DNA of 64,000 bases from Spirochaetaceae bacterium (GCA_965224705.1 OZ245056.1:1472001-1536000), one strand, 5' to 3'; positions 2,409 to 64,000 are shown, numbered from the stretch's first letter. Notes: a model not told the origin generated them from the letters alone. A program made the numbers and translations.

Positions 2409-2589
2409 TGAACTTTAATGAAAAATTACGATATTTCATTAAGCACATTTCTTCTTTCTGCTGCCTCTGAGCCTGTATGCCTGGAGGAACGCATCGCTGA
2501 CAAACTGGGCGTCATTCTTTTTGGCAAAGGCCTTTCGGCCTGGGGAATTTTCCTATGCTTTTTTATTGACCCATGCTACACTCTATACC

Positions 2590-4353
2590 ATGAAGAAACG
2601 CTTGTCCCAGGGTATCTCTGATTTCAAGAAATTCATCGACGAAAACTGTTATTTTGTCGATAAAACCCATCTCATCAAGTATCTTATCGACAATCCCAGC
2701 GAAGTACACCTGATTACCCGCCCCCGGCGTTTCGGCAAAACCCTGAATTTGAGCATGATCCGCTATTTCTTTGAGGCTCCCTGTCCGGGGAGTTCCGAAC
2801 CGGCTAACGGCTATCTCTTTGACACTATGTCTATACGCGATCATCCCCGGTGCGTCCAGTACCAGGGGCAGTATCCGGTGATACATTTAAGTTTCAAGGA
2901 TGCCAAGGGGGCTTCGTTTGATGAATGTATGGAATTGATCAGGGATATGCTCTCCACGGAATACCGTCGGCATGGGTATTTACAAGATTGTAAAGTATTG
3001 CGTGATTCTGAGCAGAAAGTTTTCTCCAAAACAATTGATAAAAACGGCACAGATCAGGATTATGCACAATCCATAAAACACCTCTCATCCTGGCTAAAGC
3101 GAGCCTACGGCAAGCCAGCCTACATTCTGCTGGACGAGTACGACACTCCCATGATGGCCGCCTACCTTGGGGGGTATTACAGCCAGATGGCATCCTTCAT
3201 CCGCAGCTTCATGGTACAGAGCTTCAAAGACAACCCCAACCTGAAGCAGGGGGTGGTCATCGGCATACTCAAGGCGGCCCAGGAGAGCATCTTCAGCGGC
3301 TTTAACAATCCGGCGGTGTCCACCATCCTGGACCCGGACATGGAGGACTGCTTTGGATTCACCGATGGCGAAGTGGTGAAAATGGCATCGTATTACGGCC
3401 TGAAAGACAGAATGGAGGAGATACGGCAGTGGTACAACGGCTATGTTTTCGGCAGCGGCACCGTTATCTACAACCCCTGGAGCATTGTCAGTTTTCTTAA
3501 CAAGCCAGCAGCGGGTCTACGCCCCTACTGGGTAAACACCAGCGACAACAGGCTGGTGCGGGAGGCCCTGCAGTTGGAAAGAAACGAATCCATCGAAATT
3601 GTCTCCCGCCTGCTGGGGGGAAGGGAGGTGAGAAAAGAGGTCTACCACCACATCGTCTACCCGGAGATAGCGAAGAGCCCTGATGCGGTGTGGAGTTTTC
3701 TTCTCCATGGCGGCTATCTGAAGGCCACCGACCGGCAGCAGCATGAATACGGCCAGGATTATCGTCTGTCGATTCCAAACAAAGAGGTGCACTATGTTTA
3801 CAACAAGATCATTAAATCCTGGCTGGATGACGAGTTTCAGGCCAGGGAAGATTTTCTGGCCTTCATCCGGGGCGTGAGGGAGATAAATCCCCGCCTGATT
3901 GAGCTCAGCCTGACTGCGATGCTGCGGGTACTGGCCAGCTTCCACGACATGGCCCCAACCGGGCGCCCGAAGTCGGATAAAAGGAATAAGAAAAGCGGAG
4001 AGATGTTCTACCACGGCCTTCTTCTGGGCTTGCTGGCCTATCTTGGCGGAGAGTACATGGTGGAGAGCAACCGGGAATACGGCACCGGTCGGGCGGACAT
4101 AGTGCTGACCAAGCGCGCCGCCCGGGGGTGTAGCTGGAGCGACGAGGCTCTGCTCTTTGAACTGAAGCAGGAAGACAGCGGCAGCACAACCCCGCTGAAG
4201 CAGGTGGCCGCCGAGGCCTTAAGTCAGGCCATGGAAAAGTACACGGACGGCGCAATGGCCAGGTGGCAGCCCAAACGCTCTCTGGTGCTGGGGGTGGGTT
4301 TTCGCGGGAAGGATCTGGCACTGGTCTACGAAAGCCTGCCGCATGCTGGCTGA
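2590..4353 (+). CDS. AAA-ATPase-like + PD-(D/E)XK nuclease (DUF1703/PDDEXK_9 type), paralog 1
   Basis: GISDFK..YFVDKT, RPRRFGKTLNLSM, LLDEYDTP, YNPWS, FYHGLLLGLL, SNREYGTGRAD, FELK. ATG 2590 is preferred: TGnTACACT lies 7 nt upstream and the start aligns with paralog 2. Confidence 0.92.
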   Translation: MKKRLSQGISDFKKFIDENCYFVDKTHLIKYLIDNPSEVHLITRPRRFGKTLNLSMIRYFFEAPCPGSSEPANGYLFDTMSIRDHPRCVQYQGQYPVIHLSFKDAKGASFDECMELIRDMLSTEYRRHGYLQDCKVLRDSEQKVFSKTIDKNGTDQDYAQSIKHLSSWLKRAYGKPAYILLDEYDTPMMAAYLGGYYSQMASFIRSFMVQSFKDNPNLKQGVVIGILKAAQESIFSGFNNPAVSTILDPDMEDCFGFTDGEVVKMASYYGLKDRMEEIRQWYNGYVFGSGTVIYNPWSIVSFLNKPAAGLRPYWVNTSDNRLVREALQLERNESIEIVSRLLGGREVRKEVYHHIVYPEIAKSPDAVWSFLLHGGYLKATDRQQHEYGQDYRLSIPNKEVHYVYNKIIKSWLDDEFQAREDFLAFIRGVREINPRLIELSLTAMLRVLASFHDMAPTGRPKSDKRNKKSGEMFYHGLLLGLLAYLGGEYMVESNREYGTGRADIVLTKRAARGCSWSDEALLFELKQEDSGSTTPLKQVAAEALSQAMEKYTDGAMARWQPKRSLVLGVGFRGKDLALVYESLPHAG

Positions 4354-4400
4354 TATTGAACACCGAGTCCATTGAGACGGGTCGTACTCCTGGAAAGGCA

Positions 4401-4988
4401 TCAGTCGGAATCGGGCAGGCCGTTCATGACATAGGTTCCTGTGTAAAGGAAATCACACAATCGTGACGGATTGTACATATAAGAAGGATATCCATAATCG
4501 ACCCAATTGGAGATTTCTTTATCATATGCGGCATCCATGCGGATAATTTTCCCGTCTTCATATCGGATCAGCTGATCACTCTTATAAGTCTTATCATTAT
4601 AGGTAATCCTAATACCGAGATAACGAACAGCTTCTTTTATATCGGTTTTTTTCAATTTAGATTCTTCATGTCCCGGAGAGTGAGGGGATTCCACTATGAA
4701 TCTAATGGATCCTTCCTCTAGTTTTTCAGTATCATAATACCCCTCATCGTTCCAAATTCTGTAAAACCGGGATATCCAGATATTGTCATGTATAACCCCG
4801 CCCTCCTGATCAACAACATCTATATGTATACTCTCCAGGTGTTCATCCAAATTCGGCAAATTGTTAATCTGGACCGTAAAACCGAAGAAGTAAATATCCG
4901 GATCACTGTCCGCAGGCAGTTGAAGACAGGATGTAAGTAATAACACCGCAAAACCAATGAAAATAAGCAAATGAATTGATTTTTTCAT
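4401..4988 (-). CDS. Hypothetical lipoprotein
   Basis: Signal peptide with lipobox LLTSC. Confidence 0.7.
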   Translation of the reverse strand: MKKSIHLLIFIGFAVLLLTSCLQLPADSDPDIYFFGFTVQINNLPNLDEHLESIHIDVVDQEGGVIHDNIWISRFYRIWNDEGYYDTEKLEEGSIRFIVESPHSPGHEESKLKKTDIKEAVRYLGIRITYNDKTYKSDQLIRYEDGKIIRMDAAYDKEISNWVDYGYPSYMYNPSRLCDFLYTGTYVMNGLPDSD

Positions 4989-5111
4989 ATTTTTACACCT
5001 CTCGAAGATGAAGAAGCCGGATGATGCTTCAATTCGCTGAAGGCATTATCTTCGGATACTCTAATATGTCCTGAGAAGCAGATGAACATCGATAAGAATC
5101 TACGAAAACTG

Positions 5112-5146
5112 GCGAAAATCGGCGAAATCTGCGAAATCTGCGGATA
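5112..5146. repeat. Short 9-bp tandem repeat (GCGAAATCT-like x3-4)
   Basis: ggcgaaaatcggcgaaatctgcgaaatctgcggat. Confidence 0.7.
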
Positions 5147-5311
5147 AAACAGGTTGATTCTCTCAATACAGGACACAATGTCAATAGTTATGGGTGGTTC
5201 CGACAGCCAATGATTCCTTCACCAATTCCGTATTCTCAAGGGTTGAAAAGCAGTTTTTTGACTGAAGAGTCGATCAGACGAGTGGTTGAGGTAAAAAAGG
5301 AGGACGTGTTT

Positions 5312-5500
5312 GTGAAAAGAATGTATTTCTCCCTATTGGCAGTCGGCCTGCTACCTTGTGTCCCTGGAGCCTTGCCGCCCGGGGTGATGAAGAAGCAGGC
5401 AAGAATGGAGAGATAACGGTTGAATCCGGGGTGAAAAGGGGCGGCATTGTGAATGTAACCTCTTCAAAACAGGGAGTTTTGATTAAAAATTTCAAGCCTT
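5312..5500 (+). pseudogene. 5' fragment of an OppA-like peptide ABC solute-binding protein gene
   Basis: AGGAGG RBS, then MKRMYFSLLAVGLL..., a frameshift into SLAARGDEEAGK...KRGGIVNV...GVLIKNFKP (resembles the family 5 GG...NFNP N-terminus), cut off at the duplication junction. Confidence 0.5.
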
Positions 5501-6101
5501 TGGGAGAAACCCATACCGCCATTCGGTACCAGGTTGTCCACCGAGGGCCGATCCTCCCCCTCAGGAACACTTTCATCCACCCATGGTTCCCGCAGAGACA
5601 TTCCACGAAGGGATTATCTCTTGAATATCGAAGGGGCTTTCCACCACCAGGCTGAGCAGTTCCACCGTCCCGGCAATGGGAAGGCTCCTCTTCCATCCCT
5701 GGAGTCTGTCGGACTTACGCCTCACGGCTCGATTTTGCCCTTCTCTCCAGAAGCAAGCCTCCTGCTTGCTTCTGGAGAGCCGCCTTCGTTCGTTTTCGCC
5801 GCCATCCGTGGCGGCTTTTCCTCGCTATCGCTCGGCACTCTCTCAGGATGCGAGTCCATAGACTCGCATCCCCTGCTGCGGCGTTGCCAAAATACTCACG
5901 TAGCCCAACTACGCTCCGTTTTTGTCGCCTTGCACCAGGAAAAAATCATCAAAAATCGCCTCGAAGCCTTAAAGTCCGACAGACTCCCAGGGAGGAGTAA
6001 ATTGACTCTTGACCTGAAGCATTTCTCCCGGTAGTCTGAAGGCCAAGGAGACGAAAGCCTGTTTTGTAAGTGCCACTATTCTGCGGGATCATGTTATCCA
6101 T
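5500..6101 (-). pseudogene. Truncated second copy of the C39-like peptidase gene
   Basis: Matches 444-759 but is interrupted by a MITE, frameshifted, and lacks the catalytic C-terminal half. Confidence 0.85.
5702..5986. mobile_element. MITE family A (IS1182-type ends), long variant with an internal hairpin insert
   Basis: TIR GAGTCTGTCGGACTT / AAGTCCGACAGACTC with flanks CCTG/CCAG. The empty site is visible in copy 1 at ~645. Confidence 0.92.
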
Positions 6102-6248
6102 GCAAGTTTGTAAGATACTTAAAAAATCGCGGGATAAACCGGCTGTTTAACTCCTTTGTGTGTTTCCCCTTGTTTTTCTGATACTACACTATCATGGTGG
6201 AGTTTTAAAGCTCTCTGAATTCTAAGATTTTCCATTGGGAGGCCATTC

Positions 6249-7733
6249 ATGCACGAATTGGGACGCCCCGGTGCTTTGTTCATGCTCGGGTTGTACGGAT
6301 GCGAAAAACTGGGCGAAAAAGATAAAAGACTCCTTGAGCTGATTAAACCTTCCGGGATAATTCTTTTTAAGAGAAATATCCAGACCGCCGAACAGGTTGA
6401 TCGCCTCATCGGTGAAACGACAGGATTTCTTGGGTACAAACCGCTTATCTCGATTGATCAGGAAGGAGGCGTCGTCAGCCGTCTCACCGAGGGCTTCACT
6501 GTTTCTCCGGGAGCCATGGCCCTGGGCCGGACGGGGAATAGCCAATATGCCTACGAGGCGGGGAAAATACTGGGAAAAGAGATGAAAGCCCTGGGTATCG
6601 ACTGGGATCTGGCCCCGGTTGTTGATATTAACAACAATCCGGATAATCCGGAGATCGGAATCCGTTCTTTTGGCGATACAAGAGAAATCGTCACCGAATT
6701 TGCCGGACAGTTTGTCCGCGGCCTGGAAACCCAGGGCATTATTGCCTGTCTGAAACACTTCCCCGGTAAGGGCCGGGTATGGATAGATGCCCATCTGGAT
6801 ATGTCGGTTCTCGACGTGGAAGAAGCCGTGTTATTTGAAGAAGAACTCCATCCTTACATGAAAATTAAATCCCCCAGCTGGATGCCAAGTCATGTCTATT
6901 ATTCGGCACTCCAGACCAGGAAGGAACCCGCTTCGGTCAGCAGAGAAATCCTCACTGATTTAGTGAGGGGACGCCTTGGATATGACGGTGTCCTTGTTGC
7001 CGACAACATGACGATGGGGGGTATAACCAACTACTATTCGGTTGCCCAGGGGGTCAAGCTTTCCTTCTATGCCGGCATGGATGTCCTGCTTATCTGCCAT
7101 GATTATGATAAGCAGGTTGAGTCCTACAATGTTCTTGTAAAAGAGGTAGAGCAAAATGAGACGGCCCGAATGAGGATGGAAGAATCCCTCAAACGGATAG
7201 AAGGCCTCTTTCTTTTGAGGAACGGCGAAAAACCTTCCAGGGATTGCCTGGGAGAACCGGCCCATCTTCAGGTGATGAGGGAGATAAGCGGTAAGGCCGT
7301 TGAAATATTGAAGAACGAAGATAAGGCCATTCCCCTCAAAGGTGTTGATCTGATTTATGCGGTTGATTTGGGAACCGGAAAAGTTCAGGTGGAGGATAAA
7401 AACCGGGAGGCTTGCCCACCGGCTTTCCGGCTTTCCCGTGAAACAGGGGCCCCCGTGATAAGAATTACACAGGAAATTCTTGCCGCCCCTACCGAAGCAG
7501 CCAGGGCCGCCGGGGGCAGGAGGGTCGTCATCTTTACGGAAAATGCCCACCTCGACGGAGGGATGAAGGCTTTTATCCGGGAACTTTCCCGTAAGGCAGA
7601 GGTATTGGTGCTATGTGCGTTGAGGAATCCCTACGACCGGAACATTGAGGGGGTACGGAATGCGGTCTGCTCCTATGGATATACGCCGATGCAGCAGGAG
7701 AGTATCGTTGACCTGATGCTGGGTGGGGGATAA
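6249..7733 (+). CDS. nagZ: GH3 beta-N-acetylhexosaminidase (NagZ-like), copy 2
   Basis: Same length as copy 1, about 22 of 494 residues different by eye; first gene of the namZ operon. Confidence 0.9.
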   Translation: MHELGRPGALFMLGLYGCEKLGEKDKRLLELIKPSGIILFKRNIQTAEQVDRLIGETTGFLGYKPLISIDQEGGVVSRLTEGFTVSPGAMALGRTGNSQYAYEAGKILGKEMKALGIDWDLAPVVDINNNPDNPEIGIRSFGDTREIVTEFAGQFVRGLETQGIIACLKHFPGKGRVWIDAHLDMSVLDVEEAVLFEEELHPYMKIKSPSWMPSHVYYSALQTRKEPASVSREILTDLVRGRLGYDGVLVADNMTMGGITNYYSVAQGVKLSFYAGMDVLLICHDYDKQVESYNVLVKEVEQNETARMRMEESLKRIEGLFLLRNGEKPSRDCLGEPAHLQVMREISGKAVEILKNEDKAIPLKGVDLIYAVDLGTGKVQVEDKNREACPPAFRLSRETGAPVIRITQEILAAPTEAARAAGGRRVVIFTENAHLDGGMKAFIRELSRKAEVLVLCALRNPYDRNIEGVRNAVCSYGYTPMQQESIVDLMLGGG

Positions 7734-7799
7734 TCAAACAATGTCCGTCTCCCCCTGTGCTCCCTGTTTACCCATGGTCTGATTGAGTGGGAGAAGCGG

Positions 7800-35791: not shown

Positions 35792-37402
35792 TTATTGGGG
35801 AACCTTTCCTACCGTGGTGATGGACAGTATCGCTTCTCCCACCCGTTCGTCGGTCTGTCCGGCCCGCTGCTTCTTCTTCAATCCCCGGTTACGGGCGATT
35901 ACCGCTCCCATCCCCTTGTAAACGTGATACCGTTCGCCGTCGATCACGGCGATTTCGGTGATGGCCTCCCCGGGTTCTTCCGAATAGGCGGTAACAACCA
36001 ACTGTTCCACCCCCAGGGGAGGAACCACCTCAAATAAAAAGGGAAACCTGACCGCCCGGGCCACCCGGTCTATCCCGATGTAGTAGGAGGGCTCCAGAAG
36101 AACATACTCCCCGGTGGCAAGCCGGTAGGTTATTCGTAAAAAGGCGGGCTGGTTCACCCTCAGGTAGAACTGAAACTCCTCCTCTTCTTCAAAGACCAGG
36201 TTTTCTCCGGCCCGTCCCTTCTGGCTCCACACCTCCACATTGATGCCGCCATCGGTAATCGCCTCTTCGGAAAACTCCCTCAGGGCCGCCACCGCCTGGT
36301 CGTATCCCCGGGGCTCCAGGTTAAACCGACTCTTTACGGCGGCCGCCGGAAAGGTAACGGTGGTCATGCCTGCAATTTCTTCATCCTCCAGGGCGATGAT
36401 ATTGAGCCGGACTTCCGGTAATTTCTCCCAGTATACTCCCTTTATCCGAAGTTCTCCCCTCTTGCGGGGAAGGAAGGAAACCAGCCTTTCCCGCAGGGCT
36501 TCGGCGGCGTAAACTCCGAACTCGCTGGAGAGCATACTTTCTCCATAGGTGAGGGGAGGGCTGATTGCCGGGGTACCCTCCACCCCCTGGCTTTTGAGGG
36601 CGATGGCAATTTTCTCCAGAGCTTCTTCAAAGGTGGCCGCCCTGGTACCGCCGGTTTTGTCAAGGGCCCTTTTGATTTTTGTTTTCAAGGCCTCAAAGGC
36701 GGATTCATCAATTCCTATCCGGGAGTAATAATCCTTCCTTTTTCCCACCGTAAGATAATGGTTGGCCGTCTTTTCGATTGCACCGATTACAGGAAGCCCC
36801 TGGATGACAATATCATACAGGCGGGTCAGATCGCTGCTGCTCCGGTCCATTTCCTCCTCAATTTCCTGGAGTTTTGTCAGTGATTCTTTACCCTTTTGAA
36901 CATAGAACTCCAGCAGGTGAGACCGCTTGATGACGGCCAGGACATAGAGGTTCTTCTTCTCTGCTTCAATGACGTAGTCTATCCCGGCCACTTCCATGTC
37001 GGTGGTGGTTACGGTTTCCGTGTCAACTTCTGTGAACGAGTCACCTCTCCCTCTGGAAAAACCTTTTTCACGAATAATGGTCTGGCTTCTTATATGAACC
37101 ATTATCCGCTGGACCAGGTCGGTCAGTGCCGCTTCCCTGGCACGACTGAGGGCTTCCGTTTCTCGAACTTCGCCCCCCGACCTCCCCGTATTGCCTTCGG
37201 TCTGTTGAACCATGGCAAACCCGGTCAGGTACAGGGCGTCCGGGTACTGGGGGTGCCGTAATCCGTAAGTTCGAGACCATTCAGAGAGGGCCGTAAGAGG
37301 ATTCAGGGATATCAGAGCCAGAACAGTAACGCCCATGGATCGTCGCATGAAGTCCATGCTATTAAACCCGGCAGGTTTAGTCAACTCAGCCGCCTTGATC
37401 AT
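35792..37402 (-). CDS. Exported protein with an LPP20-like N-terminus and DUF4384-like C-terminus
   Basis: Hydrophobic leader; C-terminal VEVWS.KG...F.E.E....YLRVNQPAF...VPPLGVEQL pattern. Start position uncertain. Confidence 0.55.
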   Translation of the reverse strand: MIKAAELTKPAGFNSMDFMRRSMGVTVLALISLNPLTALSEWSRTYGLRHPQYPDALYLTGFAMVQQTEGNTGRSGGEVRETEALSRAREAALTDLVQRIMVHIRSQTIIREKGFSRGRGDSFTEVDTETVTTTDMEVAGIDYVIEAEKKNLYVLAVIKRSHLLEFYVQKGKESLTKLQEIEEEMDRSSSDLTRLYDIVIQGLPVIGAIEKTANHYLTVGKRKDYYSRIGIDESAFEALKTKIKRALDKTGGTRAATFEEALEKIAIALKSQGVEGTPAISPPLTYGESMLSSEFGVYAAEALRERLVSFLPRKRGELRIKGVYWEKLPEVRLNIIALEDEEIAGMTTVTFPAAAVKSRFNLEPRGYDQAVAALREFSEEAITDGGINVEVWSQKGRAGENLVFEEEEEFQFYLRVNQPAFLRITYRLATGEYVLLEPSYYIGIDRVARAVRFPFLFEVVPPLGVEQLVVTAYSEEPGEAITEIAVIDGERYHVYKGMGAVIARNRGLKKKQRAGQTDERVGEAILSITTVGKVPQ

Positions 37403-37407
37403 GACTA

Positions 37408-39571
37408 CACCGAAAACTATCGCCCCACAACCCCGCTAGAACAAAAATCCGGTCTGGATCTGGAATATGCCGGTGGGCATGAATTCAGAAAAGCTAGGGT
37501 CAAACAAAATAGAAAGCGCACCGCCGATGTCGATGAACCAGCGTTTCTCCGGAGCTACCCGCACACCCAGCCCTAAATCAAAAGGAAAATAACCAACTTC
37601 AAGAAAGTGGGCCATTCCAAAATCAAAACATCCATACACATTCACCGGTATGGCCCAGGCGGTTTTGTAGCGAACACCTGTAGATAATTCCACCCACATG
37701 TCGGTGCTGTTGGTGCCTGCTGAGAAACCCATAGTCCAGGCCCAGTTCCGGCTGAAGTTGCGGGCGTAATGGATGCTACCTCCAACGATGGATGAGTATG
37801 ATAATGAGTATAAGGAGAAATCACTTCTGGCGACAAAGCCTGCAGACAGCTCATGGGACTTGCTGCTTCCCACCAGTCCGCCGGATTTGCCTTTCTCCTG
37901 CCTTACCTCCCCGGTGAAGCTGCCCTCCGGCAGGGAGGTGCGGGCCTCGCCCACCGCCGCTCCCACTTTTTTGCGCCCCTCCACATACACGTCCTCCAGA
38001 ACAATGTCTGTTATGCGGGCCTTATTGCCGGTTCTACCGAACAGCCCCACGTGGTCTTCGGCGGGGCGGGAGATGTAGAGGCGGCTGATTCTGTGGCCGC
38101 TGCCGTCAAAGGTGCCGGTGAATTTTTCTCGCACCGATCCGGCTATGGGCTGGAAGTTGTGATCGCCCAGGCCATCGCCATCGGCATCGGGGAAGCTGAT
38201 ATCGGCCATCTGGGTGTAGGCTCCTGCCGTGTTCTGCCGCATGGCCTGTAGGTCCTGCCAGGCATATATCTCCGATGGGCGGTAGGAAAGCGTGAATTCG
38301 CGGCTGTCGGAGCCGCGGGATAGGACAAGCACCACCGCACTGCGGCCCTGCACCGTGGAGGTGAAGTCCGTTATGTCTTTTGCAAAGAGCTGAAACCGTC
38401 CATCCAGAATTGTCTGGGAGCCGCTTGCACCGCCCATCTGCCACTGATAGCTGCCGCCGGGTACCGGGGCTGCCATAATCACGGGTGTTCCGGCGAGAGA
38501 GGGGTCTTTTATTGCCTGACCCAGGATGCTGTGCTCGCCGGAGTAGGTGCTTAAAACCGCCTCGTCCAGCGATGAGGCGGCGGTGTAGGCGGGCAGATCC
38601 GGCCTGTTGCCGTCCAGGGCCGCTGCCGCGCTGGGTGCACCCGCCGGATCGCCAAAGAAGAAGTTTGATGTCATGCTGGAGTTGCGCCAGGGCACCTGAT
38701 TGCGGTTCATCCTGGTGGTTTCGGCAGTAACCAATTTCATCAGATCGTCCACTTCCAGCCCCGGCTCGCGGATGTAGCTCAGCAGGGCGGCAGTGAAAAA
38801 ACCGTTCCTGCCGGCGGGATTGTCGCCTGCCGTCTTGCCGGGCGAGGTGGAATAGATGATCATGGACTCGGGCGGCTGAACACGGACGATGGCCAGGCCC
38901 TTTTCGCCGCTGCGGGCATAGCCGGGGTAGGGATTGTCGCGGCAGGAATCCAGGATGATAATGTTCTTCTGGTTTCTGGACTGCTCCATCTTGCTCATCA
39001 GCAGATCCACCGGCACGCCAAAGTACTCCAGCTCGTCCTGGCTTTGAATGTCGGCATCAACCGGGATGATGTAGTTCTGGCCGCTTACCTGGGCACCGTG
39101 GCCGGAGTAGTAGAACAGGCCGGTGGAATCCCTGTTCAGGCTGTTGCCGAAGTCACGTACTGCCTGGATGGTTTGCCTCTTGTCGGCATCCACCAGAGTG
39201 GTAACGCTGAACCCCAACTCCGTTAAAACCGCCGACATGTCGGCGGCATCGTTGACGGGGTTCTTCAGCGGATTGGAGGTGTAGGCACTGTTGCCTATCA
39301 CCAGGGCCAGCCGCTCCTGGGCGAACAGGGCTGTGCACATCAGAGACAATAATGTCAGTAAGAAGCATTTTTTCATCATAGCAATCCTTTTGTATCGCAA
39401 TTCACCTGAACGGAACTGGTTTTCAGCCACACCCCAATTCTTACACATTGTTGAAGAACTGTTATAGGAGGCCGCTAAAAACAGTTTTGTGTCCCGAAGA
39501 ACTATAATCATGCATCAAATAAAATTATTACGCAACCCGGAATCTCTCTTCGTCCAGGGGCAATCGCATCT
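37408..39571. repeat. ~2.2-kb direct duplication unit B, copy 1
   Basis: Matches 41553-43760; ends in a solo MITE-B terminus (GGGCAATCGCATCT). Confidence 0.95.
37436..39379 (-). CDS. Secreted caspase-family (C14) protease + GLUG-like domain + C-terminal beta-barrel, copy 1
   Basis: Signal peptide, ALVIGNSAY, YSGHG, LDSCR, FTGTFDGSGH, amphipathic strands ending in TGFLF. Confidence 0.85.
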   Translation of the reverse strand: MMKKCFLLTLLSLMCTALFAQERLALVIGNSAYTSNPLKNPVNDAADMSAVLTELGFSVTTLVDADKRQTIQAVRDFGNSLNRDSTGLFYYSGHGAQVSGQNYIIPVDADIQSQDELEYFGVPVDLLMSKMEQSRNQKNIIILDSCRDNPYPGYARSGEKGLAIVRVQPPESMIIYSTSPGKTAGDNPAGRNGFFTAALLSYIREPGLEVDDLMKLVTAETTRMNRNQVPWRNSSMTSNFFFGDPAGAPSAAAALDGNRPDLPAYTAASSLDEAVLSTYSGEHSILGQAIKDPSLAGTPVIMAAPVPGGSYQWQMGGASGSQTILDGRFQLFAKDITDFTSTVQGRSAVVLVLSRGSDSREFTLSYRPSEIYAWQDLQAMRQNTAGAYTQMADISFPDADGDGLGDHNFQPIAGSVREKFTGTFDGSGHRISRLYISRPAEDHVGLFGRTGNKARITDIVLEDVYVEGRKKVGAAVGEARTSLPEGSFTGEVRQEKGKSGGLVGSSKSHELSAGFVARSDFSLYSLSYSSIVGGSIHYARNFSRNWAWTMGFSAGTNSTDMWVELSTGVRYKTAWAIPVNVYGCFDFGMAHFLEVGYFPFDLGLGVRVAPEKRWFIDIGGALSILFDPSFSEFMPTGIFQIQTGFLF

Positions 39572-39674
39572 CGGGGTCCTGGCATGATATATTTTCCAGT
39601 CCGTCTCGCATTAACCCGGTTGGATTTCTGCTATTGCTTCCATTCCCCATAGCATTTCGCTATAATGCAATACT

Positions 39675-41432
39675 ATGCAAACCTTGCAACTGGGTATATC
39701 GGATTTCAAGAAATTTATTGACGAAGGCTGCTACTTTGTCGATAAGACCCATCTTATCCGTTACCTTATTGATAATCCCTGCGAAGTCCATCTTATAACC
39801 CGTCCCCGCCGCTTTGGCAAAACCCTGAACCTGAGCATGATTCGCTATTTCCTGGAGGCTCCATCACCGCCAAAAGAACGAAAGGGGCCAAAATGGCTTG
39901 CCCGGCTTCGCTTGCGCCGAGCCCTTCCCTCCAATGCCTATTTGTTCAAAGATCGTTTCATCGCCTCCCATCCGCGCTGTGCCGAGTTTATGGGGCAGTA
40001 CCCGGTCATCCATTTGAGTTTTAAGGATGCCAAGGGTGCTTCATTCAATGAGTGCATGGAAATTATCAGAAAAATGCTTTCCGCAGAATACCAGCGGCAT
40101 GGGTATCTACAGGGTTGCGGAATGCTGCACGAAGCCGATAAAAATTTATTTTCCAGAGTATTGAACAGAAACGGCACGGATCAGGACTGTGCCCAATCCA
40201 TTGAATACCTTTCATCCTGGCTCCACCGCGCCTACGGCAAACCGCCATACATCCTTCTGGACGAGTACGACACACCCCTGCATTCGGCCCATGTGGATAA
40301 GTATTACGACCAGATGATCGCCTTCATCCGCAGCTTCATGGTGCAAACCTTTAAGGACAACCCCCACCTGAAGCAGGCTGTGCTTATCGGCATACTGAAG
40401 ATTGCCCAGGAGAGCATCTTCAGCGATTTCAACAACCCCAGAGTAAGCACATTGCTGGATCCGGAAATTGAAGACACATTCGGGTTCACAGAATCCGAAG
40501 TGGAAGCCATGGCCGCTCATTTTGGTCTGGAAAGCACCATGGACGGCATAAAACAGTGGTACAACGGCTACCTCTTCGGCGGGGAAACCGTCATCTACAA
40601 TCCCTGGAGCATCGTTAGCTTTCTTGGCCGCCCCAGAGCCGGGCTGAAACCTCACTGGATAAGCACCAGCGACAACAGACTCGTCAAGGAGGTCATCAAA
40701 CTCAAGCGCCGGGATGCGAAAATGACAACAGAAAAACTCCTGCGGAAAGAGGAAGTGCGCAAGCCGCTCTTAACCAACATTCCCTACACTCAGATAGAAA
40801 ATGATCCGGATGTGGTATGGAGCTTCCTTCTCCACAGTGGCTACCTCAAGGCCTCCGAAATGCACCAGGAAGAACTGGGAACTAGCTGGCGGCTCTCCAT
40901 ACCCAACAAAGAAGTGGAGACGGCCTGGAAAACCGTGGTGCTTAACTGGTTGAAGGAGGATCTGTCCGTCAACGAGGATTTTACGGACTTTGTCAGTGGC
41001 ATCAGAGAAGCCAATCCCAGGCTGATTGAACGCGGCCTGAAGCGAATCCTGTTCGGCCTGGCCAGTTATTACGATAGCGCATGGGACGAGGAGGACAGAC
41101 GGGAAAACTTCTACCACGGCCTGGTGCTGGGTCTTCTGGCCTATCTTGGTTCGGCTTATACCGTGGACAGCAACCGGGAGTACGGGAGGGGCCGCTCGGA
41201 CATTGTGGTGGTCAGGAAGGGGAGCGATCCCGCTCAGGCCGAAGAGGCTTTTGTGTTTGAGTTCAAGCAGGGAAACAGTGCCGCTGATACCGCACTGGAA
41301 ACGTTGGCCCAGGCCGCTTATGCCCAGGCAGTGGAGGGATACCTTGACGGGGTTAAGGAGAAATGGCATCCGAAGGAATTGTTGGTTCTGGGAATTGGTT
41401 TCCGGGGGAAGGAACTTGTCTCTGCATTGTGA
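39675..41432 (+). CDS. AAA-ATPase-like + PD-(D/E)XK nuclease, paralog 2
   Basis: Same motifs as 2590-4353; TATAAT 8 nt upstream of the ATG. Confidence 0.92.
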   Translation: MQTLQLGISDFKKFIDEGCYFVDKTHLIRYLIDNPCEVHLITRPRRFGKTLNLSMIRYFLEAPSPPKERKGPKWLARLRLRRALPSNAYLFKDRFIASHPRCAEFMGQYPVIHLSFKDAKGASFNECMEIIRKMLSAEYQRHGYLQGCGMLHEADKNLFSRVLNRNGTDQDCAQSIEYLSSWLHRAYGKPPYILLDEYDTPLHSAHVDKYYDQMIAFIRSFMVQTFKDNPHLKQAVLIGILKIAQESIFSDFNNPRVSTLLDPEIEDTFGFTESEVEAMAAHFGLESTMDGIKQWYNGYLFGGETVIYNPWSIVSFLGRPRAGLKPHWISTSDNRLVKEVIKLKRRDAKMTTEKLLRKEEVRKPLLTNIPYTQIENDPDVVWSFLLHSGYLKASEMHQEELGTSWRLSIPNKEVETAWKTVVLNWLKEDLSVNEDFTDFVSGIREANPRLIERGLKRILFGLASYYDSAWDEEDRRENFYHGLVLGLLAYLGSAYTVDSNREYGRGRSDIVVVRKGSDPAQAEEAFVFEFKQGNSAADTALETLAQAAYAQAVEGYLDGVKEKWHPKELLVLGIGFRGKELVSAL

Positions 41433-41552
41433 GGAATAACCCACTGATAGGCCGGACAGCTTGCTGTAAAAAACATAGTGCCTTGAAGAATGTGGAACTC
41501 TCCCCGCCGTGCGCGGCAGGCAGGCCAATCTTCAGGGGTGTGCCGCCCCGGT

Positions 41553-43760
41553 CACTGAAAACTATCGGCTCGCAATCCCGCTAGAACAAAAAGCCGGTCT
41601 GGATCTGGAATATGCCGGTGGGGATAAATTCAGAATAGCTAAGGCCATACAAAATAGAAAGCGCACCGCCGATGTCGATGAACCAGCGTTTCACCGGGGC
41701 TATCCGCACACCCAGCCCTAAATCCAAAGGCACAGACATAGAAAAACCTCCCCCCGAAAAGTAGGCAATTCCAAGATCCGAATATCCATACACATTCACC
41801 GGGATGGCCCAGGCGGTTTTGTAGCGAACGCCTGTAGAGAATCCCACCCAGGGGTTGTCGGTGTAGGGGTAGGAGAATCTGGTGTCGGTGTAGGTGGAGG
41901 TGCCTGCTGAGAAACCCATAGTCCAGGCCCAGTTCCGGCTGAAGTTGCGGGCATAATGGATGCTTCCTCCAACGATGGATGAGAATGAGTCTGATGTGTA
42001 TGAGAAATCACTCCTGGCGACAAAGCCGACAGACAACTCATGGGACTTGCTGCTTCCCACCAGTTTGCCGGATCTGCCCTTATTCTGCCTTACCTCCCCG
42101 GTGAAGCTGCCCTCCGGCAGGGAGATGCGGGCATCGCCCACCGCTGCTCCCACTTTTTTGCGCCCCTCCACATACACGTCCTCCAGAACAATGTCTGTTA
42201 TGCGGGCCTTATTGCCGGTTCTACCGAACAGCCCCACGTGGTCTTCGGCGGGGCGGGAGATGTAGAGGCGGCTGATACTGTGACCGCTGCCGTCAAAGGT
42301 GCCGGTGAATTCTTTCGCACCGCTCCGGCTATGACCTATGGGTTGGAAGTTGTGATCACCCAGGCCATCGCCATCGGCATCGGGGAAGCTGATATCGGCC
42401 ATCTGGGTGTAGGCCCCCGCCGTGTTCTGCCGCATGGCCTGCAGATCCTGCCAGGCATATATCTCCGATGGGCGGTAGGAAAGCGCGAATTCGCGGCTGT
42501 CGGAGCCGCGGGATAGGACAAGCACCACCGCACTGCGGCCCTGCACCGTGGAGGTGAAGTCTGTTATGTCTTTTGCAAAGAGCTGGAACCGTCCATCCAG
42601 AATTGTTTGGGAGCCGCTTGCACCGCCCAGCTGCCACTGATAGCTGCCGCCGGGTACCGGAGCTGCCGTAATCACGGGTGTTCCGGCGAGAGCGGGGTCT
42701 TTTATTGCCTGACCCAGGATGCTGTGCTCGCCGGAGTAGGTGCTTAAAACCGCCTCGTCCAGCGATGAGGCGGCGGTGTAGGCGGGCAGATCCGGCCTGT
42801 TACCGTCCAGGGCCGCTGCCAGGCTGGGCGTACCCGTCGGATCGCCAAAGAAGAAATTTGATGTCATGCTGGAGTTGCGCCACGGCACCTGATTGCGGTT
42901 CATCCTGGTGGTTTCGGCAGTAACCAATTTCATCAGATCGTCCACTTCCAGCCCCGGCTCGCGGATGTAGCTCAGCAGGGCGGCGGTGAAAAAGCCGTTC
43001 CTGCCAGCGGGATTGTCACCTGCTGTCTTGCCGGGCGAGGTGGAATAGATGATCATGGACTCGGGCGGCTGAACACGGACGATGGCCAGGCCCTTCTCGC
43101 CGCTTCGGGCATAGCCGGGGTAGGGGTTGTCGCGGCAGGAATCCAGGATGATAATGTTCTTCTGGTTTCTGGACTGCTCCATCTTGCTCATCAGCAGATC
43201 CACCGGCACGCCAAAGTACTCCAACTCGTCCTGGCTTTGAATGTCGGCATCAACCGGGATGATGTAGTTCTGGCCGCTTACCTGGGCACCGTGGCCGGAG
43301 TAGTAGAACAGGCCGGTGGAATCCCTGTTCAGGCTGTTGCCAAAGTCGCGCACTGCCTGGATGGTTTGCCTCTTGTCGGCATCCACCAGAGTGGTAACGC
43401 TGAACCCCAACTCCGTTAAAACCGCCGACATGTCGGCGGCATCGTTGACGGGGTTCTTCAGCGGATTGGAGGTGTAGGCACTGTTGCCTATCACCAGGGC
43501 CAGCCGCTCCTGGGCGAACAAAGCCGTGCACATCAGAGACAGTAATGTCAGTAAGAAGCATTTTTTCATCATAGCAATCCTTTGTATCGCAATTCACCTG
43601 AACGGAACTGGTTTTCAGTCACACCCCAATTCTTACACACTGTTGAAGAACTGTTATAGGAGGCCGCTAAAAACGGTTTTGCGCCCCGATCAATCTATTA
43701 GCATGCATCAAATAGAATTATTACGCAACCCGGAATCTCTCTTCGTCCAGGGCAATCTCA
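41553..43760. repeat. Duplication unit B, copy 2
   Basis: Direct repeat of 37408-39571. Confidence 0.95.
41581..43572 (-). CDS. Secreted caspase-family protease + GLUG-like domain + beta-barrel, copy 2
   Basis: Caspase domain identical in protein sequence to copy 1; barrel loops differ. Confidence 0.85.
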   Translation of the reverse strand: MMKKCFLLTLLSLMCTALFAQERLALVIGNSAYTSNPLKNPVNDAADMSAVLTELGFSVTTLVDADKRQTIQAVRDFGNSLNRDSTGLFYYSGHGAQVSGQNYIIPVDADIQSQDELEYFGVPVDLLMSKMEQSRNQKNIIILDSCRDNPYPGYARSGEKGLAIVRVQPPESMIIYSTSPGKTAGDNPAGRNGFFTAALLSYIREPGLEVDDLMKLVTAETTRMNRNQVPWRNSSMTSNFFFGDPTGTPSLAAALDGNRPDLPAYTAASSLDEAVLSTYSGEHSILGQAIKDPALAGTPVITAAPVPGGSYQWQLGGASGSQTILDGRFQLFAKDITDFTSTVQGRSAVVLVLSRGSDSREFALSYRPSEIYAWQDLQAMRQNTAGAYTQMADISFPDADGDGLGDHNFQPIGHSRSGAKEFTGTFDGSGHSISRLYISRPAEDHVGLFGRTGNKARITDIVLEDVYVEGRKKVGAAVGDARISLPEGSFTGEVRQNKGRSGKLVGSSKSHELSVGFVARSDFSYTSDSFSSIVGGSIHYARNFSRNWAWTMGFSAGTSTYTDTRFSYPYTDNPWVGFSTGVRYKTAWAIPVNVYGYSDLGIAYFSGGGFSMSVPLDLGLGVRIAPVKRWFIDIGGALSILYGLSYSEFIPTGIFQIQTGFLF

Positions 43761-43968
43761 TTCTATCCCCACAAGGATAAAAAAACTGATTCTGGGGGAT
43801 CGAATGAAGTTTTCTTCAATAGTAGGAGTTTGTCAACTTTTCGTTATCGTTGTGAGGGGAATAATCACCTTGAACACTCTGCGCTCTCTGCGTCCTCTGC
43901 GGTTAAAAAACCATGGTAAGAAATTACCTTAAACACTCTGGTTAGTGGATTTCAGATGCGATTGCCCT
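43749..43968. mobile_element. MITE family B
   Basis: TIR AGGGCAATC(G/T)CAT / AGATGCGATTGCCCT; inverted homolog at 54702-54913. Confidence 0.85.
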
Positions 43969-44024
43969 GGCCCGGTGAAGAAAAGCGCACAGCACGCGGC
44001 CAATTCCTCCTTCCCGGCGATCTG

Positions 44025-54701: not shown

Positions 54702-54913
54702 AGGGCAATCGCATCTAAAATCCACTTATGAAAGCCTTATTCATGATTCTTAACCGCAGAGGACGCAGAGAGCGCAGAGTGATCAAGGTAATTATTCACA
54801 TCACAACGATAACAAAAAGTTGACAAATTCCTCCTATTGAAGGAAACTCCATTCGTTCCCCCAAAAATTAGTGTTTTTCATTTTTTTGGGATAGAATTAG
54901 ATGCGATTGCCCT
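54702..54913. mobile_element. MITE family B, opposite orientation
   Basis: AGGGCAATCGCATCTAA / TTAGATGCGATTGCCCT; interior matches the reverse complement of 43749-43968. Confidence 0.88.
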
Positions 54914-54964
54914 GGGCCCTATATCCCCTTACATTTCCCCTCCAATTTCAATAGTATACGCTAG

Positions 54965-59064: not shown

Positions 59065-61521
59065 TTATTTGCAAAAACAACAATTCAGAAATGTCAATAG
59101 CAACATGGACGTTGATTGGCGTCTCCTATTCCTCGTTGATAATTCGTTTATACAGAACCGGATTCTTTCGAATTCTCCTCGAGATTTTCGCTGATAGGCC
59201 CTTGATTTCCTTCCGGTTTGCTTTCTCTTTCTCATCCTCCAATAGCTCGCAACGAAGGAAAAATTCTTCAAGTAATAATATGTCAGGATAGGTCTTAAAT
59301 ACCTCATCATTGTCGGCCAGATAATCTAGCTTGCCGTTATATGCAAGCAGTAAAGATACAACTAATAGGGAAATTGCGACATTTCTGTCAGTAATGTCTT
59401 TCGCCTTCAATGCGTCATGCACAGACTCGTAGATTTCTGTTAAGTATTTTGATCTGTAATGTAATGCGAACACTTCCATTAGCATTATATATTTAAGCAA
59501 CTTGGGTATTTTGAACTCCTCTGGGATGCTCGAAATGAAATCTTCGATACTATTTGCATACTCCGAGATTGACGCCTGCATCAGATCTTTACGAACACTC
59601 GCATCGGTTTTATAGGATGATTGAATTAAGTATCCAAAGTTCAACAGGTGAAGGAGCTTTTTTTCATCATTGAGATCCGACACTCGACCATATACTTGCT
59701 TTAGGAGATCTTCGTTTTCCTTACGAATGCCACAATAGAAATAAACAACCTGATCCCACCATCCCGATGGTAACAATTTTACGATATCGTTGATATCAGA
59801 TTTCAACGATATCTTTTTGGCGAAGAAATATTCTTGAAAGGATAAATGCCTGAACTCAAATTCCTCGTGCTCGTTCTGGCACAAAAGGTTGGTGTGATTA
59901 ACAAGTTCATCAAGCATTTTTTTCGTATCAAATGTTCTTCCGAGACGTTTTGAAGTCGTTCTAAATACCTCTTGAACTTCCTTTTCGGGACACGACAGTA
60001 CATTCTTCTGATGCATAAAAAAAGCCAAATCCTCTAAGAAAGTTTCTTTGTCGTTGGCTTTATAGAAGGATTCTACTCGTCTATCTAGATTCCATTTTCC
60101 TAATAGCAGATCCGTAAACATAGAGTACAATTCGGATAGATTTGACGGTATTTCAACGTTACTATCTGCATCAAAGAGTATAGCAAGTAAAGTAATAACC
60201 AATGGTGTGTTTGGAAGCTTGTCGAGGAGATTGTGATCCTTGAGATGCTCAACAAGTCTCTCTTTTTTGTTGGAAAACCATTTCCTCACGAAAGAACTAA
60301 TTTGCCGCATGGAGAAGTCGCCAACTTTCCAGGTTCTGTATTCTGATAGAGGATTAGTGGTCTGGAATTTATTGTTTCGCGAAGTTACTACTATGGTGTC
60401 AGCTATCTCTTCTATGTATTCAAGCATTGAGAAGAATGCATCCTTCTCGTTTTGTAGTGTTAATTCATCATAACCGTCAAGAAACACAATAATTTTGTTT
60501 TCGTTGAAGAGCTTATCCAATTCAGTAACGGAAATTGATTGCTCTTTGCTTACATACTCTTTGATGTGTTTTTCTGGAGTGCCTTTAAATTCCCGAACTA
60601 GGTTCTTCAATTTTATCAGTAATGGTATACGACCGACATTCTTAATCTCATAATCTGCGACAAGTCGAAGAGTTAGTGACCTCAAAAGTGTAGTCTTTCC
60701 TGCACCGGCATTCCCTTTAACTAAATAGTGTCCAGGTTTCTCAATCAGTTTTACCAAAGTAGATTTTGTATGTTTTACAGCTGGTTTCTTGTTCTCTATG
60801 ACCTCTTCTTTTCTTATTAGCTTAGGTTCTATGAAAATATCGGAAATTTTCCGTTCTTTCCCGTCATACAAAGAGATGTTATTTAATTCGTTTAATGATT
60901 CACACCTTGTCTTTAGTTGATGAAAATATCTTGATAGTGCTCCGCTTGATACTACATATGCCTCCGGCAGATATATGTCTAGATATCCAATAAGTTCATT
61001 CGTGTCAATATATTCTATATTCGAGAATTTTAGTTGATCTGCCATGTTTACAAAGGCTTCCCGTGCGGAATTGCTGATATTTCCGGAAGATGTCACAATA
61101 ATTGAATTAAAATGCACCTTCTTTTTTTCGAGAAGACTGTCATAGCCTGAATTAATCGTCATTCTGATCTGCTTTTCTACGTTAGCAATGATTTCCTTGT
61201 CCTTTGCACTTGTAGCATTGGTAATATCATCTTTCTTAACGATGACCGCCGTATATTCGTGTCGGTTAAATTTGTTTTTCGAAACAAGAACGATATCCTT
61301 TCCTTTTTCATCGTTCCCATGAGTATCAATCACCGCTTGGAATTCCATATTTCTAAAGAGGGGAATTAAGACTTCCTTGCGGAGGTAATTCTCGTTGGGA
61401 ATGTTCTTCAGGAATGCTGCTTTTTGTGATTGATTCAAGTTCATCTCGTTCTCCTACTTATTCAATACTTAAGTTGAGCTAAGGAAGGCGAGGCTGGAAA
61501 GATTCTGTTTTTGCAAATAAC
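59065..61521. mobile_element. Cassette-like unit bounded by a 15-bp inverted repeat (attC-like)
   Basis: TTATTTGCAAAAACA (59065-59079) and TGTTTTTGCAAATAA-C (61506-61521). Confidence 0.5.
59126..61444 (-). CDS. NACHT NTPase with an N-terminal Mrr-like restriction-endonuclease domain
   Basis: THG.DEKGKDIV...VIVK, GNAGAGKTT, FLDGYDE, TSR, TPL, F.HLSFQEYF; visibly AT-rich. Confidence 0.85.
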   Translation of the reverse strand: MNLNQSQKAAFLKNIPNENYLRKEVLIPLFRNMEFQAVIDTHGNDEKGKDIVLVSKNKFNRHEYTAVIVKKDDITNATSAKDKEIIANVEKQIRMTINSGYDSLLEKKKVHFNSIIVTSSGNISNSAREAFVNMADQLKFSNIEYIDTNELIGYLDIYLPEAYVVSSGALSRYFHQLKTRCESLNELNNISLYDGKERKISDIFIEPKLIRKEEVIENKKPAVKHTKSTLVKLIEKPGHYLVKGNAGAGKTTLLRSLTLRLVADYEIKNVGRIPLLIKLKNLVREFKGTPEKHIKEYVSKEQSISVTELDKLFNENKIIVFLDGYDELTLQNEKDAFFSMLEYIEEIADTIVVTSRNNKFQTTNPLSEYRTWKVGDFSMRQISSFVRKWFSNKKERLVEHLKDHNLLDKLPNTPLVITLLAILFDADSNVEIPSNLSELYSMFTDLLLGKWNLDRRVESFYKANDKETFLEDLAFFMHQKNVLSCPEKEVQEVFRTTSKRLGRTFDTKKMLDELVNHTNLLCQNEHEEFEFRHLSFQEYFFAKKISLKSDINDIVKLLPSGWWDQVVYFYCGIRKENEDLLKQVYGRVSDLNDEKKLLHLLNFGYLIQSSYKTDASVRKDLMQASISEYANSIEDFISSIPEEFKIPKLLKYIMLMEVFALHYRSKYLTEIYESVHDALKAKDITDRNVAISLLVVSLLLAYNGKLDYLADNDEVFKTYPDILLLEEFFLRCELLEDEKEKANRKEIKGLSAKISRRIRKNPVLYKRIINEE

Positions 61522-62589: not shown

Positions 62590-64000
62590 TTATGAATCAT
62601 AAAAAACCGCCAGTTCCCTGCCCTTAAAACCTGCCCCCAGAACAAGCAGGCGCTGCGGATGCCACTTTTCCCTTACTCCGTCCAGGTATTTTTCTACTGC
62701 CTGGGTATGGGCTTCCCGGGCTAAATCTTCCAGGGCTTTGCCGTCCTTCACATTCCCATGCTTGAATTCCAGCAGGACGGCTTCCTCGGCCTGGGCCGGA
62801 TTGCTTCCCTTCTTGATCACCACGATGTCCGGACGGCCTTCACCGTATTCCCGGTTGCTCTCAACGGTATACGCCGGGCTCAGGCAGGCCAGAAGACCCA
62901 GTACCAGGCCGTGGTAGAAGTTCTCCCGTCTGGATTCCTCGTCCTCCCACTCCTCTTTACTCCTGGCCGTATCATGGTAGCTGGCCAAGCCGCGAAGAAT
63001 TCGGGACAGTCCCCGTTCTATGTGCCGGGGACTGGCTTCCTGTATGCCGGTGACGAAGTCCGTGAAGTGTTCGTTTATCTTGATATCTTCCTTAAGCCAG
63101 CGGGAAATAACGGTAATCCAGGCGGTTTCCACTTCCAGGTTGGGAATGGCAAGCCGCCATGTTATGAGCCTGTGTTCCTGCTGTCTTTCGGAGGCTTTCA
63201 GGTAGCCGCTGTGGAGTAGAAAGCTCCATACAACATCGGGGTCGCTTTCTATCTGAGGGTAGGGAATGTTGGTCAGCAGGGGTTTGCGGACTTCCTCCTT
63301 CCGCAGGAGTCTTTCTATGGTCATTTTGGCTTCCCGGCGGTCTAACTGGATGACATCCTTGATCAGCCTGTTGTCGCTGGTGCCTATCCAGTGGGGTTTC
63401 AGTCCGGCTCTGGGGCGGCTAAGAAAACTGACGATGCTCCAGGGGTTGTAGATAACGGTGTCCTCGCCGAAGAGGTAGCCGTTGTACCATTCTCTTATGC
63501 CCTCCATCTCGTCTTCCAGTCCAAAGTAGGCGGCCATGGTTTCCACTTCGGATTCTGTGAACCCGAAAGTGTCTTCAATTTCCGGGTCCAGCAATGTACT
63601 GACCCTGGGATTGTTAAAGTCGCTGAATATACTTTCCTGAGCAACTTTCAATATGCCGATCACCACGGCCTGTTTCAGGTGGGGGTTGTCCTTGAAGGTC
63701 TGCACCATGAAGCTGCGGATAAAGGTGATCATCTGGTCGTAGTACTTATCCACATGGGCCGAATGCAGGGGGGTGTCGTACTCGTCGAGAAGGATGTAGG
63801 GTGGTTTGCCGTAGGCCCGGTGGAGCCAGGCGGAAAGGTATTTGATGGACTGGGCATAGTCGCCGTCCGCAGCATTTCTGTTCTGAATTTCCGTATAGTA
63901 TTGTATTTTTGATTCATCAAAAAACTCACTTTCAAGAAGATAGTTATGTCTCTCAAATTCATCTGCGATGACTGACTTCACTAAATCCATACTTTCTTCT
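62590..64000 (-). CDS. AAA-ATPase-like + PD-(D/E)XK nuclease, paralog 3 (5' end outside the window)
   Basis: LLDEYDTP, YNPWS, ENFYHGLVLGLL, SNREYGEGRPD, LEFK. Confidence 0.92.
   Translation of the reverse strand, partial: EESMDLVKSVIADEFERHNYLLESEFFDESKIQYYTEIQNRNAADGDYAQSIKYLSAWLHRAYGKPPYILLDEYDTPLHSAHVDKYYDQMITFIRSFMVQTFKDNPHLKQAVVIGILKVAQESIFSDFNNPRVSTLLDPEIEDTFGFTESEVETMAAYFGLEDEMEGIREWYNGYLFGEDTVIYNPWSIVSFLSRPRAGLKPHWIGTSDNRLIKDVIQLDRREAKMTIERLLRKEEVRKPLLTNIPYPQIESDPDVVWSFLLHSGYLKASERQQEHRLITWRLAIPNLEVETAWITVISRWLKEDIKINEHFTDFVTGIQEASPRHIERGLSRILRGLASYHDTARSKEEWEDEESRRENFYHGLVLGLLACLSPAYTVESNREYGEGRPDIVVIKKGSNPAQAEEAVLLEFKHGNVKDGKALEDLAREAHTQAVEKYLDGVREKWHPQRLLVLGAGFKGRELAVFYDS

Follow-up and report, generated by a model that had tools for sequence, protein, structure and literature searches.

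Two tandem spirochaete genes that join a paracaspase-like protease to a predicted outer-membrane barrel with variable loops, next to a candidate DUF4384 partner

In a stretch of 64,000 nucleotides from a Spirochaetaceae bacterium (GCA_965224705.1 OZ245056.1:1472001-1536000; hereafter the window) two closely related genes, copy 1 and copy 2, encode a caspase-family (C14) protease behind a predicted signal peptide, fused to a C-terminal domain that was modelled as a small outer-membrane beta-barrel. The protease is identical in both proteins, and their differences concentrate in four barrel loops predicted to face the outside of the cell. The reading favoured here, held with somewhat less than even confidence, is that of a receptor-protease activated by clustering, with the exported DUF4384 protein encoded beside copy 1 as its substrate or inhibitor. 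The window is part of a host genome (G000) that is a single contig of 3.0 Mb and 95% complete; window coordinates and host coordinates (G000:C1) are kept separate throughout. The components of the system are located in the window as follows.

37436..39379, minus strand: copy 1 (P0001), 647 amino acids, same architecture as copy 2 with loops 2 and 3 shorter
41581..43572, minus strand: copy 2 (P0002), 663 amino acids: signal peptide, C14 protease, immunoglobulin-like (Ig-like) domain, truncated GLUG helix, eight-stranded barrel
43513..43572, minus strand: Sec signal peptide predicted from sequence, copy 2 residues 1-20
42838..43512, minus strand: C14 protease domain of copy 2, residues 21-245
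38645..39319, minus strand: C14 protease domain of copy 1, protein identical to copy 2
42055..42732, minus strand: Ig-like domain and truncated GLUG/M26-type beta-helix, residues ~281-506
42310..42336 (copy 2) and 38123-38143 (copy 1), minus strand: segment in different frames
41584..42042, minus strand: predicted eight-stranded beta-barrel, copy 2 residues 511-663, terminal Phe
37439..37855, minus strand: barrel of copy 1
41974..42012, minus strand: variable outer loop 1, residues 521-533
41848..41901, minus strand: variable outer loop 2, residues 558-575; the copies differ by 11 residues in length
41722..41769, minus strand: variable outer loop 3, residues 602-617; core of 10, 13, 19 and 7 residues in four alleles
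41614..41655, minus strand: variable outer loop 4, residues 640-653
35792..37402, minus strand: gene located 33 nt downstream of copy 1, for an exported LPP20-like/DUF4384 protein; proposed substrate or inhibitor
35879..35887, minus strand: proposed bait loop of the DUF4384 protein, with the motif Arg506-Gly-Leu

Both reading frames are open, and the two proteins are 92% identical overall. An exported C14 protease with an intact dyad, as read in a preliminary description of this DNA, is supported: residues 23-241 match Pfam Peptidase_C14 (PF00656) with E 4.6e-36 (125 bits, cut-off 21.4), and His94 and Cys146 are present in both copies. The signal peptide is probably not that of a lipoprotein, because the signal peptide of an orthologue, P0042, lacks Cys. 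Equally well founded was the claim that the N-termini are identical despite synonymous changes, as residues 1-245 differ by 18 synonymous and 0 replacement changes; the protease is under purifying selection. When a profile of 39 spirochaete homologues was searched, the MALT1 paracaspase was the first solved structure to match (E 1.2e-28). Acidic residues stand at Asp44, Asp144 and Asp186 in 36/39, 39/39 and 37/39 of these homologues, positions read as S1 residues by comparison with MALT1. Closest resemblance to MALT1 and acidic S1 residues together point to a paracaspase of the MALT1 type (MEROPS C14B). In TbMCA2 the acidic S1 residues are Asp95 and Asp211, and paracaspases are Arg-specific and activated by dimerisation (PMC4357240), so that by analogy a specificity for Arg/Lys and a dimer-dependent activation are predicted. 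The likeness to MALT1 comprises the His-Cys dyad, the acidic S1 positions and an Ig-like domain following the protease, whereas the spirochaete protein is bacterial, exported and fused to a barrel, and its specificity and dimerisation are only predicted.

The C-terminal 157 residues were modelled as eight strands ending in Phe (predicted local distance difference test, pLDDT, 70.5; predicted template modelling score, pTM, 0.67) from three sequences. The model matches OprF-N (Z 18.4), NspA (Z 17.6) and OmpW (Z 16.8), Foldseek and VIA searches match it to NspA, Ail, OmpA and OmpW, and the Atlas also assigns a barrel (0.97); no Pfam barrel family scored above its cut-off in this region. Amphipathic strands that close, a signal peptide, a C-terminal aromatic residue and a barrel assembly machinery in the genome (BamA, Omp85 match) agree with an eight-stranded outer-membrane protein (OMP), and the small barrel of about eight strands ending in Phe that had been suspected from the sequence was thereby upheld. 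With the known barrels of this size (OmpA/OprF N-domain, NspA, Ail, OmpW; Treponema TP0126 group) the domain shares the fold (Z 16.8-18.4), short periplasmic turns, variable outer loops and the terminal Phe; it differs from them in sitting C-terminal to an enzyme arm of 500 residues. In the OmpA-type topology both the N- and the C-terminus are periplasmic, and for this reason the protease is predicted to lie inside, in the periplasm, and the variable loops outside.

For comparison of the copies the loops were set from the model, ten residues being counted as membrane from each periplasmic end. The four variable segments correspond to the loops b1-b2, b3-b4, b5-b6 and b7-b8. Replacements affect 22/47 aligned loop residues vs 8/92 scaffold residues (p 6e-7) and 0/245 in the protease, the loop counts being inflated by alignment near indels, and all 14 gap positions of the barrel fall within loops 2 and 3. 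The divergence in four inter-strand segments was therefore described correctly, and by structure prediction these segments face outward; neither outcome that would have refuted the description, a C-terminus without a barrel fold or variation that is uniform or periplasm-facing, was observed. The scaffold is not invariant, and of its eight differing residues one lies in the third periplasmic turn. As many as 18 differences are found within one span of 60 residues, a clustering that 0/5000 shuffles reach, whereas the duplicated GH3 genes of the window, taken as control, show 5 differences and no clustering (4918/5000 shuffles). Loop replacements (31/109 sites) also exceed synonymous changes in the rest of the gene (43/442 sites, p 2.4e-6), and aromatic residues make up 14/61 of the loops vs a background of 8.8%.

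The same pattern recurs across strains. The database protein P0046, which is partial and carries a frameshift, agrees with copy 2 at 53/63 strand residues vs 22/53 residues of loops 1-3. In the pieces listed, contigs of three sequencing runs differ from the window by 24/996 (X3), 12/620 (X7) and 39/1349 bases (X6) at the protease end and by 99/1054, 64/509 and 41/310 bases at the barrel end, where part of the flank is counted in; this amounts to 2-3% vs 9-13% plus gaps. Among the changes listed, those common to X3 and X7 yield the P0046 residue at 5/8 codons, and one X7 contig (depth 2.6) carries an in-frame loop 3 of 7 residues.

Between protease and barrel, where a mere linker had been described after the protease, an Ig-like domain is in fact predicted: the fold of this middle module is an Ig-like sandwich plus a short GLUG/M26-type helix, homologous to spirochaete GLUG lipoproteins, one of which is encoded in this genome. 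The helix stops after about three rungs and has no Pfam match of its own, its homologues carrying PF07581; with residues 370-663 as query, 40 matches were obtained, all of them GLUG proteins. The orthologue P0042 (protease 60%, barrel ~33% identical) is without the module, an insert of 260 residues, which is read as a spacer that would exclude allostery through the barrel and permit activation by proximity. A diversified GLUG loop (AGSVREK/GHSRSGAKE), also claimed at first, proved to be a compensated frameshift: one DNA segment is read in two frames after the loss of 7 nt and the gain of 1 nt. Gly413, present in 18/19 aligned sequences, is kept in copy 2, and hence the form of copy 1, which also occurs in runs X3 and X7, is the derived one.

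The adjacent DUF4384 gene, absent from the preliminary description, is the best lead to the target of the protease. It is the only one of its kind in the genome and lies on the same strand as copy 1. Among 300 genomes of the class, DUF4384 is found in 36/47 with a strong caspase match vs 32/253 without, and no more than 6 kb from a caspase in 13/36 (~0.4 expected), figures whose significance is overstated since the genomes are kin and not independent. All 14/14 aligned DUF4384 proteins contain RG[LIF], an exposed motif like that of the caspases, whose loop after the catalytic Cys reads Lys160-Gly-Leu here and [RK]GL in 39/39 spirochaete homologues; in 20 more distant loci [RK]G[LIM] stands at the equivalent place in 16/19 open reading frames (ORFs), one being cut by a contig end. 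The post-Cys loop is where effector caspases are cleaved (PMC4357240). DUF4384 is moreover fused to 23 cyanobacterial orthocaspases (PMC8283722) and is one C-terminal type of Csx30, the substrate of the caspase-like Csx29 (bioRxiv 2022.08.17.504292); no solved structure matches it. Two of the four other caspase-barrel genes have DUF4384 two genes before them. A protease encoded together with a dedicated substrate or cleavable inhibitor is known from Csx29/Csx30 (type III-E) and PCaspase/PCi (type III-B) (bioRxiv 2022.08.17.504292, 2023.06.23.546230), the former likeness extending to DUF4384 as the Csx30 C-terminal domain. However, these systems are cytoplasmic, CRISPR-triggered and sigma-linked, while the spirochaete protease is exported and lacks a CRISPR trigger or sigma factor.

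Other spirochaete loci were seen with related arrangements. A co-directional cluster kept in two genomes (L093:754-8971, L094:4626-12997) comprises two exported proteins, DUF4384, an ARMT1-like protein and a caspase that has a barrel-like tail and repeats of the PEGA or Sel1 type. Exported caspases at L016:7828-9186 and L058:2020-3378 end in a region that is LPP20-like by eye (no Pfam match) and echoes the LPP20 domain of the DUF4384 neighbour.

A second association of exported proteases with variable surfaces was found in the same genome, where 4/7 strong caspase genes end in a formylglycine-generating enzyme (FGE)/lectin-fold domain matching the template repeats of a diversity-generating retroelement (DGR). 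Mismatches are biased to adenine in these genes (14/33 vs 2/85; 18/33 vs 5/85; 18/32 vs 8/87; and, more weakly, 20/33 vs 19/85). The DGR and its variable regions occupy G000:C1:2202573-2212753, 1539226-1541572 and 2907837-2909780, with template repeats at 2210369 and 1539226 and an avd gene present; besides the four exported caspase-FGE/lectin genes, other FGE genes belong more loosely to the variable regions. Because four caspase paralogues carry such lectin domains, the genome, as far as sequence comparison goes, has two ways of coupling a conserved exported protease with a variable surface. DGR-diversified putative 'antigen sensors' have been proposed (PMC10907252), and Treponema TvpA is a further DGR case (PMC4891356); the variable binding surface joined to a protease effector is common to both designs, and the other exported caspases of this genome fit it. 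The barrel differs in being no DGR target, in the large indels of its variation and in facing the outside of the outer membrane.

On the favoured reading, a multivalent ligand from outside (phage, host lectin or competitor) would bind the four variable loops and so cluster the barrels; the clustered barrels would pair the periplasmic paracaspase domains, which would become active by proximity; and the paired proteases would cut after Arg/Lys, at the Arg/Lys-Gly of the DUF4384 protein, a presumed substrate or cleavable inhibitor, with envelope defence or stress signalling as the possible output. We prefer this receptor-protease because of the two intact alleles with near-identical upstream DNA (176/190 columns), the aromatic-rich loops and the parallel with the DGR-varied paralogues; two such alleles seem to suit a wider repertoire better than escape. 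A bolder version was also considered, in which the hypervariable loops form an antibody-like binding site, clustering dimerises the paracaspase, and DUF4384 and sister caspases are cut in a periplasmic cascade; together with the DGR-varied paralogues this would be an immune repertoire at the level of the envelope in a host-associated spirochaete, and DUF4384 a general bait domain for bacterial caspases. We regard it as possible, with the odds clearly against it.

Several observations weigh against the receptor-protease, besides the kinship of the genomes and the inflated loop counts named above. The barrel is poorly resolved and of low confidence in a longer model. Although replacements are concentrated in the loops, the loop dN/dS (nonsynonymous to synonymous rate), at 1.36, does not significantly exceed 1 (p 0.5), and the loop dS is itself raised (0.26 vs 0.11, p 0.08); the 5' part of the genes could have been made uniform by gene conversion. 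Outer-loop variation is ordinary in outer-membrane barrels (PMC6016234, PMC8407342), and gene duplication is so frequent in this genome that two copies need no special cause. Since MALT1 requires no cut of its post-Cys loop (PMC4357240), the shared basic-Gly-hydrophobic motif may be structural. In a genome of the same genus (G009) and most of 11 orthologous loci the DUF4384 gene has no adjacent caspase, and 2/4 other caspase-barrel loci have no DUF4384 neighbour in the stretches covered. Finally, the reverse transcriptase of the DGR is interrupted by stops.

Part of this evidence would also fit the main rival, a barrel that is a mere anchor for a periplasmic protease controlled otherwise, for example by DUF4384, its loops varying as handles for phage or host or by relaxed constraint. 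This alternative stands close because barrel loops vary in many bacteria, and those of spirochaete OMPs are documented to vary under outside pressure (PMC6016234); a dN/dS indistinguishable from 1, C-terminal modules that are interchangeable among exported spirochaete caspases, and the 260-residue insert that separates protease and barrel and is missing from the orthologue all accord with it. Yet two intact alleles with near-identical upstream DNA give no escape, the loops, rich in aromatic residues, accumulate replacements at a higher rate than the gene's synonymous clock, and other caspase paralogues encoded in this genome carry binding domains varied by the DGR, so that anchoring as the whole function is held to be the less likely of the two.

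A beta-helix directly before a C-terminal barrel resembles the passengers of type Va secretion, and the locus might be seen as an unusual autotransporter whose protease, Ig domain and helix lie outside and act on proteins of host or competitor. The derivation of the insert from GLUG lipoproteins, its resemblance to a putative IgA1-protease helix (3n6z, Z 12.4) and the occurrence of the stretch in mollusc metagenomes would agree. But eight strands with no helix before strand 1 are predicted instead of the 12-stranded barrel and lumen linker helix of type Va, the beta-helix is only a stub and missing from the orthologue, and the lumen of an OmpA-type barrel is too narrow for a polypeptide chain, which makes secretion of this kind quite improbable. 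A narrow channel is described in PMC8407342.

Slightly less credible again is a protease that acts in trans in a switch of extracytoplasmic function (ECF) sigma and anti-sigma factors: three sigma factors of ECF size are encoded in the genome, and a zinc-finger anti-sigma follows one of them, but none of either lies near the locus, the sole DUF4384 protein has no anti-sigma domain, and no sigma factor stands beside the four other spirochaete caspase-barrel genes (partly from ORF lists). Programmed rewriting of the loops, by a DGR or by gene conversion out of silent cassettes as in TprK, is highly improbable. In its favour, a DGR is present, and recombination is suggested by block-like loop replacement with raised dS and by a contig of low depth in which copy-2 sequence passes into copy-1 sequence over a new loop 3. 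Yet the large indels are not DGR-like, and the genome (single contig, 95% complete) contains neither a DGR template nor any further copy of the barrel DNA, nor a donor cassette that matches a loop of either copy, of P0046 or of the X7 variant. As template and donor are lacking, mutation plus recombination among alleles would be the simplest source of the loop variation.

With regard to distribution, the barrel profile gave 4 matches among 1.84 billion representatives, of which only P0042 was a true new relative. No close full-length relatives were found in 400 genomes of the phylum, 37 genomes of the family gave one weak match in the search for relatives, JGI metagenome contigs yielded none, and plasmids no full-length match. 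By a heuristic, barrel-like tails were seen in 0/117 further caspase homologues of P0042 and in 4/68 spirochaete caspase ORFs from a chosen subset of loci; the G020 barrel has no detectable relation to that of the two copies (hhalign 1.1%), and the remaining three tails were assigned by the heuristic only. The Atlas contains a cluster of 109 members at 0.97 to P0042 and one of 66 members with C14 and OMP_b-brl_2, and exported spirochaete caspases have interchangeable C-termini (lectin fold, hydrophobic hairpin, TPR, unrelated barrels). Thus the preliminary view that the architecture is uncharacterised holds for the literature, in which no description of the fusion was found (subscription papers and supplements lying outside the coverage), but not for the databases: judged by P0042, the 4/68 ORFs and the Atlas clusters, the caspase-barrel fusion recurs and is not unique. 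What is new lies in the tandem alleles with hypervariable loops, in the GLUG insert and in a pairing with DUF4384 that involves no sigma factor; the parts are known. Bacterial caspase homologues with N-terminal signal peptides were reported by Asplund-Samuelsson 2012 (PMC3501461), likewise with C14 behind a probable signal peptide and modular C-termini including FGE-sulfatase; in contrast to the present proteins, no fusion to an outer-membrane barrel is named in the available part of that source, supplements not included.

Two further architectures were noted among spirochaetes. A hydrophobic helical hairpin and coiled coil, possibly another envelope anchor, ends many exported caspases (G000:C1:217433-220426; L028, L029, L055, L057, L066, L072, L075), and tandem genes with N-terminal fibronectin-like domains have small barrel-like C-terminal tails (L012:401-2631; G000:C1:2047252-2050112).

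Most sequencing runs that carry the stretch are metagenomes of molluscs, produced in three studies, and G009 is labelled Spirochaetaceae; the organism is accordingly a spirochaete occurring with molluscs. The interval 37436..43572, initially treated as one feature, does contain the two fusion genes but also an unrelated gene on the other strand. The neighbouring elements are:

39675..41432, plus strand: AAA-ATPase_like and PDDEXK_9 gene between the copies, not counted in the system
43747..43970, no strand assigned: 224-bp element with terminal inverted repeats, 5' of copy 2; edge of the duplicated unit

The duplicated unit begins where the inverted-repeat element ends, and one end of the element is also present at 39558-39571, upstream of copy 1, for which the ORF caller had placed the start at 39511, upstream of the start common to both copies. 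In G009 (~92% nucleotide identity) the flanking genes are directly adjacent with nothing in between, which indicates that 6.6 kb were gained in the host genome or lost in G009. In run X1, contigs match the 3' ends of both copies and their flanks without a single difference, and an assembly artefact is therefore unlikely as the source of the duplication; none of them bridges the copies, and none of the listed contigs in four runs spans the whole locus. Contigs of an RNA run cover both genes at depth 3-9, which is no demonstration of transcription, and scans of the locus for promoters and terminators stayed at chance level.

The AAA-ATPase/PD-(D/E)XK gene is 1 of 44 full-length paralogues in the genome, many of them in tandem, the window holding those at 2521-4353, 39675-41432 and 62590-63990. 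Another of them is flanked by a pair of GH3 genes, 96% identical (window 644-7751); duplicated non-AAA genes around such a gene are listed twice genome-wide, both cases in the window. Inverted-repeat elements of 200-225 bp lie at 43747-43970 and 54702-54915 of the window, with six long copies in the genome; their end motif has 43 exact matches in the genome, and one copy abuts an insertion sequence (IS) transposase gene. A NACHT-domain protein of 772 aa (window 59126-61444), possibly a defence gene, is encoded near transposases and a fragment of a group II intron reverse transcriptase. A group II intron-like reverse transcriptase of 421 aa occurs in three copies (G000:C1:331882, 1652954, 1071852), one with an internal stop.

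The locus offers a named candidate substrate bond (DUF4384 Arg506-Gly507), an activation route (dimerisation through clustering), and natural alleles that differ only in their outer loops. If only anchoring holds, the link to DUF4384 remains a testable lead. If the receptor-protease is true, DUF4384 would gain a function, and bacteria would possess single-chain receptor signalling across the outer membrane by proximity.

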